Shown here piece after piece: positions 2,304-8,157 of a stretch of 32,000 nucleotides of DNA. Position 1 is the stretch's first letter. Each line of letters opens with the position of its first letter. Under the pieces are notes generated by a model that saw only the letters and a list, made by a program, of their open reading frames with translations, was not told the DNA's origin and did no database searches. A program made the translations under genes and the position numbers. Source of the DNA: Candidatus Thorarchaeota archaeon (GTDB lineage: Archaea; Asgardarchaeota; Heimdallarchaeia; Hodarchaeales; Hodarchaeaceae); the NCBI GenBank assembly GCA_048882505.1, contig JBHLRO010000002.1:30001-62000 (forward strand), read 5' to 3'.

Positions 2304-3347
2304 GTGGCTCAAATGAGAAATATTGATGGTTCTCGCGGTGAGGGAGGAGGTAGCATACTACGAATCGCTACTGCCCTTGCCGCCGTGACACAAGAGCCAA
2401 TAGAGATCACTAATATAAGAAAAAAACGGCCTAAGCCCGGATTGAAGGCCCAGCATTTAATGGGATTACAGGCATTGGCTGATTTTTGCGGGGGTAGCCT
2501 AGAGAATGCTTACCTTGGCTCAGAAGCTATTAGCTTTTTTCCCACCAATGATTGGAAGTCACATCTAAAGATTCATGTTGCAACCGCAGGTAGCATCGGT
2601 CTCATTCTTCAAACCCTTCAAATTGCTAAACTGGCAAATAAATCCCTTTCCCTAACGGTGGAATTCCAAGGTGGGGCCACATTCGGTAAATGGGCACCAA
2701 GTATTCCATATGTCGATCATGTGACCTGGACTGTTCTTAGGATGATGGGGTGCCAGCTGGAATTAACGGTTGGACGCCACGGATTTTTTCCAAAGGGCGG
2801 CGCCAAGGTTGGTGCAAAAATGACGTCTATGGGCTCCTTGAACGGGCTAAAATCAGATGAATTCCAAGCACCCAACCACGCCACGGTTCTCTCATTCGCG
2901 TCAGAACATCTGAAAAAAGCGCATGTTGCAGACCGACAAAGTAAGACAGTTGTGAATGCATTGAAAGGAAGAAACATCGCTACCACGGTTTACAATGAGA
3001 TTGTTCCAGCAGATAATCCCGGATCTGGGATCTTAGTCTTCTCACACAGTGGAGATAACATCATCGGAGGGGATTTTGTTGGAGAAAGAAAACTTCGGGC
3101 GGAACAAGTTGGCCAAAATGCAGTCGAACGATACATCAAAGTCGTGAAGAGTAAAAGTACAGTGGATCCACTTTGTGCAGATCAAATCCTCCCAATCATG
3201 GCCTGTGCAACCTCCTCAAGCGTTTTCACAACCCCTTACATTTCAAACCATACAAAAACTAACATTCGTTTGATTCAGGAACTCCTCGATGTTACAATAA
3301 CTCCTACAAAAGAAGAAACAAACTATCTTATCTCAGTCGACCTTTGA
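2304..3347 (+). CDS. rtcA: RNA 3'-terminal phosphate cyclase
   Basis: DGSRGEGGGSILR, RPKPGLKAQHL, GFFPKGG, ADQ and SNHTKTN (catalytic His) motifs; GTG start. Confidence 0.93.
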   Translation: MAQMRNIDGSRGEGGGSILRIATALAAVTQEPIEITNIRKKRPKPGLKAQHLMGLQALADFCGGSLENAYLGSEAISFFPTNDWKSHLKIHVATAGSIGLILQTLQIAKLANKSLSLTVEFQGGATFGKWAPSIPYVDHVTWTVLRMMGCQLELTVGRHGFFPKGGAKVGAKMTSMGSLNGLKSDEFQAPNHATVLSFASEHLKKAHVADRQSKTVVNALKGRNIATTVYNEIVPADNPGSGILVFSHSGDNIIGGDFVGERKLRAEQVGQNAVERYIKVVKSKSTVDPLCADQILPIMACATSSSVFTTPYISNHTKTNIRLIQELLDVTITPTKEETNYLISVDL

Positions 3348-3677
3348 AGACTGGGTTTCGTCCATTATCCACTGTAAATAGTTCTTACTTCCCGATTGGA
3401 TAGGATATACAGCAAGTGCGGGTAAATCATAGGGGTGGATATCTAGAAGTGTTGTACGAATCTGATCTACCAACTCGGTTCGCGTTTTACACCATAGAAT
3501 GATCTCCTCTTCTTCTTCGATTTGACCATGCCATCGAAATATCGATTTTACCTGAGGGATGAGATTAGCGCATGCGACTAGATTTCGTTCAACCAAAGTT
3601 CTTCCGATATTTGTGGCATCTTCTATTGTAGCAACAGTGGTGTACACAGCACAATACATAAAAAAGTCTCCATACAA
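3333..3677 (-). CDS. cutA: Divalent-cation tolerance protein CutA
   Basis: LVERNLVACANL, SIFRWHGQIEEEEE, HPYDLPAL, YLQWI motifs; the true start may be the ATG at 3659. Confidence 0.93.
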   Translation of the reverse strand: MYGDFFMYCAVYTTVATIEDATNIGRTLVERNLVACANLIPQVKSIFRWHGQIEEEEEIILWCKTRTELVDQIRTTLLDIHPYDLPALAVYPIQSGSKNYLQWIMDETQSSKVD

Positions 3678-3691
3678 CTTTGAGCTTCTAG

Positions 3692-4078
3692 TTACTTCTT
3701 CTGATGAATGCTCCGTTTTAGCCTTTTCCGTTTTTGCCTCTTAGGATTCAAGTATCCAAATCGACGCTCTTGCCCGCACATTAGACATTGATAGTGGACT
3801 TGCCGCTTTTTGCTGTTTAATCTTACCCGGGTGGTCTCCACGCTTAAGGGGGTATGACATGCCCGACAAAATTTCATTCTATACTGACGGGGAAGGGGAA
3901 TCTTCACTCGTGTTCGAATCTTCAGTGCATCTTTGGCTAGATCCTGTGCCCGCTGAGTGTCATGCACCCGTAATTGGAGACTTTCGTCTAGTAAATATAA
4001 TACGGCCTCTTTTCCAAACGAATGCTGTTCTCGCTTCTCGGTTCTTCGGACTAGACGCTTTTGCTTTTTAGATACCAT
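3692..4078 (-). CDS. rnp4: Ribonuclease P protein component 4 (Rpp21)
   Basis: Basic protein with FCRACHTPL ... CLMCG zinc ribbon, and RVRL ... RRF typical of Rpp21/Rpr2. Confidence 0.88.
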   Translation of the reverse strand: MVSKKQKRLVRRTEKREQHSFGKEAVLYLLDESLQLRVHDTQRAQDLAKDALKIRTRVKIPLPRQYRMKFCRACHTPLSVETTRVRLNSKKRQVHYQCLMCGQERRFGYLNPKRQKRKRLKRSIHQKK

Positions 4079-4163
4079 GATTCCTGAATGCTCGGGAGGT
4101 GGAGTTGAGTGTTCAAGAAATGTTAATAGCTTTTTAATAAGAAATGGTTACACGCCCTACTGC

Positions 4164-4171
4164 TTATAAAA
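4164..4171 (+). promoter_or_regulatory. Putative TATA box for the tRNA-Glu/SmAP1/rpl37e unit
   Basis: TTATAAAA about 45 nt upstream of the tRNA 5' end, in the divergent rnp4/tRNA intergenic region. Confidence 0.5.
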
Positions 4172-4264
4172 GGCTGTCAGAGTGATCTGTTGGTCTTAAA
4201 AAGCTGCTAGAGGCACGCTCCGATAGTGTAGCTTGGCCCATCATTTAGGGCTTTCACCCCTAAG

Positions 4265-4299
4265 GCTTCGTCCCCCTTAAACCTGGGACGAAGGAGGAT
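4265..4299 (+). other. tRNA-Glu intron 1 (35 nt, position ~45/46, relaxed BHB)
   Basis: Perfect 9-bp intron stem CTTCGTCCC/GGGACGAAG; central helix CCTA/GAGG with one mismatch; 3-nt bulges AG|G and AT|A. Confidence 0.75.
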
Positions 4300-4312
4300 A
4301 CCCGGGTTCAAA

Positions 4313-4342
4313 GGGTTTAGAGTCGTTCTCTCGTCCTGAAAT
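4313..4342 (+). other. tRNA-Glu intron 2 (30 nt, position 59/60, strict BHB)
   Basis: T-stem CCGGG/CCCGG, perfect central helix TTCA/TGAA, bulges AA|G and AT|T. Confidence 0.85.
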
Positions 4343-4382
4343 TCCCGGTCGGAGCATCTAATCTTATGGATATGAAAATCAT

Positions 4383-4622
4383 ATGGTACAACGCCCATTA
4401 GATGTTTTGAACGAAGCCCTCAATAAAACGGTGATCCTCAAGGTTCGAGGAAACCGAGAGATTCGAGGTATCCTTCGAAGTTACGATCCACATCTTAATC
4501 TTGTGTTGGAAGACGCCGAACTGATTCATCCTCCCCAAAACGAAGAGGATGAGGCGAAAATCGAGGAATTAGGTCATATCATCCTCAGGGGTGATAATGT
4601 CATCCTAGTTTCGCCTCCATAA
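4383..4622 (+). CDS. Sm-like archaeal protein SmAP1 (LSm family)
   Basis: RPLDVL, Sm1 motif [18 protein letters not shown], Sm2 motif [13 protein letters not shown]; directly upstream of rpl37e as in many archaea. Confidence 0.95.
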
Positions 4623-4649
4623 TCACACCCCCAGCAGGAAGTATTCAAT

Positions 4650-4838
4650 GTGACCAAGGGTACAGCATCATTTGGCAAACATACAAGTAAACGCACTCAC
4701 ATCCAGTGTAGGCGGTGTGGTCAGCGAAGCTATCATAAATCTAAACATCGCTGCGCACATTGCGGATATCCTAGCCCAAAATTACGGCGTTTTTCGTGGC
4801 AACGTAAGAATTTTAACAGACGTCGAAGGATAGACTAA
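4650..4838 (+). CDS. rpl37e: 50S ribosomal protein L37e
   Basis: [18 protein letters not shown]...SYH...CAHCGYP; GTG start with an upstream AGGAAG. Confidence 0.96.
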
Positions 4839-4894
4839 TACCGTTCTAGCAGGTGTGAATTTAAGTTAATAGCCGCGGTAGCTTAGACCGGGAG

Positions 4895-4926
4895 AACCAC
4901 GCCATTTTGCTGGTGTATTTCCTGTA
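4895..4926 (+). other. tRNA-Phe intron 1 (32 nt, position ~22/23)
   Basis: Central helix CGGG/CCTG, bulges AG|A and TA|A; intron hairpin ...CACGCCA/TGGTGT... Confidence 0.75.
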
Positions 4927-4941
4927 AGCGCCGGACTGAAG

Positions 4942-4968
4942 GCGTTTAATCATCAAAAAATGATAGAA
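4942..4968 (+). other. tRNA-Phe intron 2 (27 nt, canonical 37/38)
   Basis: Inserted one base 3' of the GAA anticodon; central helix CTGA/ATAG (3 pairs including one G-T, plus one mismatch). Confidence 0.85.
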
Positions 4969-5130
4969 ATCCGGTTGTCGCGTGTTCAAATCACGCCCGC
5001 GGCATTAATTTCTCTTTCTTTTGATTATCGTGTGAATTCTGGTGTAGATATTGATAAACCTTCACAAATTTTTTTATAAGTGCAAGTGATTGCCCCCTCA
5101 TCGTTGATAGCGCGATGAGTTGATAACGCA

Positions 5131-8083: not shown

Positions 8084-8157
8084 TGCGCCGACCGAGATTC
8101 GAACTCGGGTAATCAGCTTGGAAGGCTGAGATCCTAACCGGACTAGATTATCGGCGC
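8084..8157 (-). tRNA. trnG: tRNA-Gly (anticodon TCC), intron-less
   Basis: Minus strand GCGCCGA...TCAGC-CTTCCAA-GCTGA...CCGAG-TTCGAAT-CTCGG-TCGGCGC-A, a full 74-nt cloverleaf. Confidence 0.96.

Follow-up and report, generated by a model that had tools for sequence, protein, structure and literature searches.

A tRNA-Glu(UUC) gene with two predicted introns at non-canonical positions in a Hodarchaeales archaeon

Introduction

Genes for tRNA that carry several introns with hBH or HBh' motifs are known (Yoshihisa 2014, PMC4090602), and positions 45/46 and 59/60, the two sites that concern us here, both appear in a published list of intron sites in archaea that are non-canonical (PMC4090602). In Asgard archaea, an (alpha-beta)2 EndA with an L1 loop has been reported (Kaneta et al. 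2018, PMC5829648), and in three complete Asgard genomes 92-95% of the tRNA genes contain introns, over half of these genes having several (2024, PMC11291895). A comparison of 90 Asgard genomes found T-arm and variable-region insertions at BHB motifs, as well as two EndA paralogues in most of the genomes (bioRxiv 10.64898/2026.10.13.758758); the word stem "Hodarch-" is not present in the text of that preprint. A preliminary description of the locus studied here regarded tRNA genes with several introns at non-canonical positions as best known from Thermoproteales, a view that is out of date now that heavily interrupted Asgard tRNA genes have been published (PMC11291895; bioRxiv 10.64898/2026.10.13.758758).

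The locus lies at positions 4217-4356 of the plus strand of a 32,000-nt stretch of DNA, the whole of which we refer to as the window. We conclude from comparative sequence analysis that it is very probably a functional tRNA-Glu(UUC) gene, present once in the genome of a Hodarchaeales archaeon, its two introns being predicted to be spliced out at the two published sites.

Results

Anatomy of the gene

Removal of 4265-4299 (35 nt) and 4313-4342 (30 nt) from the 140-nt precursor leaves 75 nt, and the joined exons (4217-4264, 4300-4312 and 4343-4356) are recognised by ARAGORN as tRNA-Glu(ttc) with a full cloverleaf. The predicted spliced form has an acceptor stem of 7 bp, an anticodon stem of 6 bp, a T stem of 5 bp and the T loop TTCAAAT. 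By cloverleaf count the inserts are at 45/46 and 59/60, and it is excision at both of these predicted sites that restores the canonical cloverleaf: ARAGORN called no tRNA in the 140-nt precursor or in either single-deletion form. The parts of the gene are as follows.

4217..4264, plus strand: exon 1, comprising the acceptor 5' strand, D arm, anticodon arm and variable-loop positions 44-45 of the ARAGORN cloverleaf
4253-4255, plus strand: anticodon UUC, within exon 1
4265..4299, plus strand: intron 1, 35 nt, positions 45/46, relaxed HBh' motif
4300..4312, plus strand: exon 2, 13 nt, comprising variable-loop positions 46 and 48, the T-stem 5' strand and T-loop positions 54-59
4313..4342, plus strand: intron 2, 30 nt, positions 59/60, strict hBHBh' motif
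4343..4356, plus strand: exon 3, 14 nt, comprising position 60, the T-stem 3' strand, the acceptor 3' strand and the discriminator A

The preliminary description had given the same coordinates and sequence, the same tRNA identity and the same two intron positions, all of which agree with ARAGORN on the spliced form, with an enumeration of BHB motifs and with a comparison of motifs among genomes. The junctions that it predicted, CCCTAAG joined to ACCCGGG and TTCAAA joined to TCCCGG, are likewise consistent with the enumeration and the cloverleaf.

The best match of the predicted product among reference tRNAs is tRNA-Glu(CUC). Aligned with an intron-less tRNA-Glu from another family of Heimdallarchaeia (reference score 49), it shows about 62 identities over 75 positions without a gap, and exon 1 has 82-95% identity to the tRNA-Glu genes found throughout the genus. 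The 3' CCA is not encoded, nor is it in the tRNA-Glu, tRNA-Asp and tRNA-Phe genes seen in the studied genus. Upstream of the gene, a putative archaeal TATA box, TTATAAAA, lies at 4164-4171, 46-53 nt 5' of the mature end, which if used would give a leader of about 20 nt; a further A/T-rich stretch, TTAAAAAG, is found at 4196-4203.

Cleavage motifs and folding of the precursor

The central helix of intron 2 pairs TTCA (4307-4310) with TGAA (4337-4340) in four of four positions, between the bulges AA^G and AT^T; its outer helix is the 5-bp T stem itself (4302-4306/4344-4348) and its inner helix has 2 bp. In intron 1, the central helix between CCTA (4259-4262) and GAGG (4294-4297) has three pairs and an A.G opposition, the bulges are AG^G and AT^A, the inner helix has 9 bp (4266-4274/4285-4293) and an outer helix is absent. 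A BHB intron is recognised in part by its flanking helices, of which intron 1 has h' only and intron 2 has both. The earlier characterisation of intron 2 as a textbook BHB and of intron 1 as a relaxed one with a 9-bp stem was thus reproduced by enumeration. Given the lack of an outer helix and the A.G opposition, cleavage of intron 1 would depend on an enzyme of broad specificity, an activity that we predict for this organism below.

Two other readings of sequence elements within the introns were considered and set aside. A C/D-box guide RNA was rejected because CUGA is present but a C box is absent and the introns are only 30-35 nt long, and the Shine-Dalgarno-like GGAGGA at the 3' end of intron 1 is accounted for by its pairing to CCUA.

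In the precursor's minimum free energy structure (-54.3 kcal/mol, z = -2.8), the acceptor and T stems form alongside the 9-bp intron 1 helix and three pairs of that intron's central helix (C4259-G4297, C4260-G4296 and U4261-A4295), and the anticodon stem is absent. In the model, then, pairing in the central helix of intron 1 is at the expense of the anticodon stem, as had been proposed: the motif would borrow bases 40-43 of that stem, and the anticodon arm would form only after removal of the intron or refolding. RNAfold is a weak guide here and its predictions prove little: it fails to fold the mature tRNA itself into the cloverleaf, and the AU-rich central helix of the T-loop motif has a low predicted probability.

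From this competition it had been suggested that the two introns are removed in a fixed order, the precursor having to refold. The use of anticodon-stem bases 4259-4261 by the central helix of intron 1 and the precursor fold without an anticodon stem both point in this direction, and some refolding would indeed be needed once intron 1 is gone. That refolding, however, concerns the anticodon arm and not the other intron. The two motifs share no bases, the fold of the full precursor holds the intron 1 helices and the T stem together, and the pairing probability of either motif stays the same when the other intron is deleted in silico: that of the intron 1 central helix is 0.47 vs 0.46 with or without intron 2, and that of the intron 2 central helix is 0.08-0.09 with or without intron 1. 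We regard a fixed order as unlikely; as modelled, the cleavage motifs are mutually independent and would require none.

Conservation and synteny

A DNA search of 60 related genomes gave matches in 19 of the 21 genomes of the same genus. All six differences from the sister species (G016), to which the 140 nt are 96% identical, fall within the introns, the exons being the same in both; two of the six, C4272T and G4287A, form a compensatory pair within the 9-bp helix of intron 1. Judged by this pattern of substitution, the exons appear to be under purifying selection. A 794-nt contig from an independent metagenome study carries the same six changes and both introns, with no indel, and an intron-less joint across either intron was found in none of the contigs of four DNA runs. 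The inserts cannot therefore have arisen in assembly.

The gene sits amid RNA-processing genes, which in the interval 2304-4838 of the window are arranged around it as follows.

2304-3347, plus strand: RtcA RNA 3'-phosphate cyclase
3333-3677, minus strand: CutA-like protein
3692-4078, minus strand: RNase P Rpp21/Rpr2-like zinc protein
4383-4622, plus strand: Sm protein
4650-4838, plus strand: ribosomal protein L37e

Eleven genomes of the genus share the order Rpp21, tRNA-Glu(UUC), Sm, L37e, and a survey of orthologues of the kind that the preliminary description had called for found the syntenic tRNA-Glu(UUC) gene, 136-140 nt long, to be interrupted in all 11. The positions of the introns nevertheless vary among these orthologues. 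Two of them (L021 in G020 and L028 in G018) have a D-loop intron and one near the anticodon stem or variable region, and the T-loop intron is absent from both, so that intron positions have changed within one genus at one syntenic locus.

Boundaries of the introns

To place the boundaries without bias, we enumerated BHB candidates over the 140 nt, a candidate being a central helix in which at least three of four positions pair, bounded by two 3-nt bulges and accompanied by a flanking helix, and passed those combinations that leave 73-78 nt to ARAGORN. Among 143 BHB-like candidates and 239 length-compatible combinations, the pair 4265-4299 and 4313-4342 had the top score. It is also the only one of the listed solutions to give both a canonical 7-nt T loop and the variable loop AGAC, which is that of relatives' intron-less tRNA-Glu genes. 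As a rough null, the same solver was applied to 74 genomic regions, and it found no tRNA in the 43 that have only short chance BLAST matches, with thousands of combinations tried in each of these. ARAGORN itself is lenient, and tolerant of D-arm variants in particular: in a motif-free deletion scan of a nearby tRNA-Phe locus, very many were accepted. For this reason comparative evidence weighs more than an ARAGORN call alone, and D-arm introns are delimited by the BHB motif and by comparison with relatives.

The gene could be real and intron 1 nonetheless have other boundaries, such as 4270-4301 with a longer variable loop, or be removed by a route that does not involve a BHB. Other deletions (ranks 3-10 of the enumeration) were also accepted as tRNA-Glu by the lenient ARAGORN, and the central helix of intron 1 contains a mismatch and is without an outer helix. 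Moreover, in seven species the first intron seemingly begins one base upstream, at 44/45, with a poor motif; no clear BHB motif fixing the first-intron boundaries was found in the distant syntenic orthologues (L006 and L013-L018), and for L014 and L028 the BHB solver gave no solution for the first intron. Against this, the alternative boundaries score lower than 4265-4299, and only the latter restore the AGAC loop of the relatives. In addition, five distinct introns occupy the identical 45/46 site, following CCUA AG^N and all ending in (G/U)AGG A(U/A)^A, so that the geometry is kept and the inner sequences differ. One of them (G004) has a perfect central helix, CCUA/UAGG, with four of four pairs, and in another (G010) the 9-bp helix has a wholly different sequence and is still fully paired. 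Quite improbable in the light of this series, a different placement of intron 1 is not the reading that we adopt, and 4265-4299 is retained.

The 59/60 site is still better represented. A survey of the tRNA-Glu(UUC), tRNA-Glu(CUC) and tRNA-Asp(GUC) genes of 20 genomes yielded 22 distinct introns exactly at 59/60, all with the same helix and bulge geometry and with divergent inner sequences. In these introns UUCA pairs with UGAA, GGAA or UGGA, the bulges are AA^N and AN^U, and the T stem serves as the outer helix. GGAA replaces UGAA opposite UUCA in the 59/60 introns of eight loci (L006, L007, L013, L015-L018 and L029). An A.G opposition beside the 5' bulge, at the inner end of the central helix, is consequently seen both in CCUA/GAGG at 45/46 and, in seven species, in UUCA/GGAA at 59/60. 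It is conceivable that this A.G class is a lineage-specific relaxed substrate of an Asgard endonuclease or, given that intron 1 sequesters the 3' strand of the anticodon stem, that intron 1 acts as a maturation checkpoint of the sole tRNA for the major Glu codon, and we consider either proposal a long shot. The 11 syntenic orthologues and the 22 introns at one site provide a series for studying intron gain, loss and sliding.

Need for the gene and its detection

Within 305 long ORFs, GAA outnumbers GAG by 7270 to 3516 and is thus the major Glu codon. A DNA search, ARAGORN, the Rfam model and BLAST with reference tRNAs found only two tRNA-Glu loci, 4217-4356 (UUC) and C2:10862-10966 (CUC), and no second or intron-less tRNA-Glu(UUC) was found in the MAG assembly, which is 94.5% complete. 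The split gene should accordingly be the only source of a GAA-reading tRNA within the assembled MAG. An intact intron-less copy elsewhere in the MAG, which the preliminary description had named as a sign of a pseudogene, was looked for in this search and not found. That the locus is a decaying tRNA pseudogene with two insertions and no working tRNA product, as might be read from the failure of ARAGORN and the Rfam tRNA model to call it, is extremely improbable, given that it is the sole tRNA-Glu(UUC) gene found while GAA is the major codon, that its exons are invariant where its introns vary with one compensatory change, that its synteny is kept in 11 genomes and that both inserts lie at exact BHB cleavage geometry.

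The anticipation that standard pipelines may miss the gene was borne out for two tools. The locus was passed over by ARAGORN in its default and -i modes and by the Rfam tRNA model, both in a gathering scan of the window and in a genome-wide RF00005 scan (E <= 1). Since the gene so missed is the sole decoder found for the major Glu codon, and hence essential, a tRNA would be wrongly reported as missing when such MAGs are annotated automatically.

Other tRNA genes of the genome

The two-intron tRNA-Glu(UUC) gene is one of several interrupted tRNA genes, which include a second one in the window and a cluster outside it; an intron-less gene is found in the window as well.

4872-5004, plus strand: tRNA-Phe(GAA) with two introns, 516 nt downstream of tRNA-Glu(UUC)
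8084-8157, minus strand: intron-less tRNA-Gly(UCC), Rfam 64.3 bits
C2:10670-11440 of the studied genome (G000): cluster of interrupted tRNA genes (L032), about 20 kb upstream of the window

The tRNA-Phe gene has a canonical 37/38 intron of 27 nt (4942-4968), with three of four pairs in its BHB, an inner helix of 5 bp and an outer helix of 6 bp, and a D-arm intron of 32 nt that is best placed at 4895-4926, with a central helix of four of four pairs. ARAGORN -i miscalls this locus as tRNA-Leu(taa) with one 47-nt intron. The cluster holds an Ala-like gene of 161 nt, tRNA-Glu(CUC) and a tRNA-Asp(GUC) gene of 146 nt, the last with a 42-nt intron at 37/38 and a 29-nt intron at 59/60. The tRNA-Glu(CUC) gene (C2:10862-10966) has a 28-nt intron at 45/46 that is related to intron 1 of tRNA-Glu(UUC), the two genes sharing 82% identity from exon 1 through exon 2, intron included. 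With other interrupted tRNA genes in its genome, tRNA-Phe among them, the cell must splice such introns, and the tRNA-Gly(UCC) gene indicates that some of its tRNA genes are uninterrupted.

By a rough, incomplete count, introns interrupt at least 23 of the approximately 39 tRNA genes that could be recognised, and about 10 have roughly 55 nt or more of extra sequence. The genome-wide solver returns one solution per region and some of these are wrong, for example the long "introns" around intron-less tRNA-Pro, tRNA-Gly and tRNA-His, so that the intron burden is given as rough lower bounds only. Chaining of BLAST matches to reference tRNAs, with both ends required, recovered almost nothing; looser clustering worked and was noisy. 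In two genomes of another family of the same class (G028 and G036; loci L113-L161), tRNA genes are mostly compact and mostly encode the 3' CCA. The Rfam tRNA model has 40 and 36 matches in these two genomes, vs 28 in the larger studied genome.

Splicing enzymes and host

Two EndA paralogues of 182 and 213 aa, with PF01974 and PF02778, are encoded in the genome, at C18:41065-41613 and C18:72020-72661, as is an RtcB ligase. The best PDB match of the 182-aa protein (EndA alpha) is the catalytic subunit of Aeropyrum pernix EndA (3p1z_B), to which it aligns end to end with an E value of 1.2e-41. It keeps the catalytic Tyr/His/Lys, the His being the residue that is replaced in the 3ajv mutant, and it aligns without a gap through the Crenarchaea-specific (L1) loop of 3p1z_B, K39 falling on K44 and K41 on R46. 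This loop and K44 give A. pernix EndA its broad substrate specificity (Hirata et al. 2011, PMC3241643). Aligned to M. jannaschii EndA, the 213-aa protein (EndA beta) lacks the catalytic His, which fits a structural role as the beta subunit. By homology, the pair fits a broad-specificity (alpha-beta)2 heterotetramer, and the prediction that this lineage has a broad-specificity EndA is consistent with this predicted class and with its loop lysine.

The closest relatives of EndA alpha, at 73-95% identity, come from MAGs of Heimdallarchaeota, Hodarchaeota (Ca. Hodarchaeum mangrovi among them), Hermodarchaeota and Promethearchaeota, and the Thorarchaeota EndA comes next at about 50% identity. Going by these sequence affinities, the host is a Hodarchaeales-type Asgard archaeon (Heimdallarchaeia), which agrees with, and narrows, the earlier suggestion of an Asgard lineage. 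Hodarchaeales is an order often placed closest to eukaryotes.

Discussion

We propose that a precursor of about 140 nt is transcribed carrying two introns of the endonuclease type, for which the predicted (alpha-beta)2 EndA, its alpha subunit equipped with the Crenarchaea-specific (L1) loop, would act as the splicing endonuclease. EndA would cut after the second base of each 3-nt bulge in two motifs, the strict hBHBh' one of the T loop (59/60) and the relaxed HBh' one of the variable loop (45/46), and the RtcB ligase would then join the three exons. CCA, not being encoded, would be added after splicing.

The arrangement resembles that of Thermoproteales (Sugahara et al. 2007, 2008; PMC4090602) in combining a strict hBHBh' with a relaxed HBh' motif, in having two or three introns per gene, and in an (alpha-beta)2 EndA, which is here predicted from homology. 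It differs in its host, a mesophilic sediment organism of a different phylum. The enzyme, in turn, is like that of A. pernix (PDB 3P1Z/3AJV, PMC3241643) in the Tyr/His/Lys of alpha, in a loop with Lys at the K44 position and in a His-less second paralogue; unlike in A. pernix, the beta subunit is closer in sequence to proteins of M. kandleri, M. jannaschii and ARMAN-2 than to A. pernix beta.

The closest parallels are with the published Asgard sets, with which the studied genome shares several short introns per tRNA gene, non-canonical sites in the T arm and variable region, BHB boundaries, genes that are missed or miscalled by standard tools, and two EndA paralogues. Unlike those sets, the host here is a Hodarchaeales genus, with by rough count at least 23 of about 39 tRNA genes interrupted. 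Each element is in the literature already, from the two intron positions and the type of enzyme to the heavy interruption of Asgard tRNA genes, and existing knowledge is unchanged by the finding; the two-intron tRNA-Glu gene illustrates well something previously described in Asgard archaea and is not a new phenomenon.
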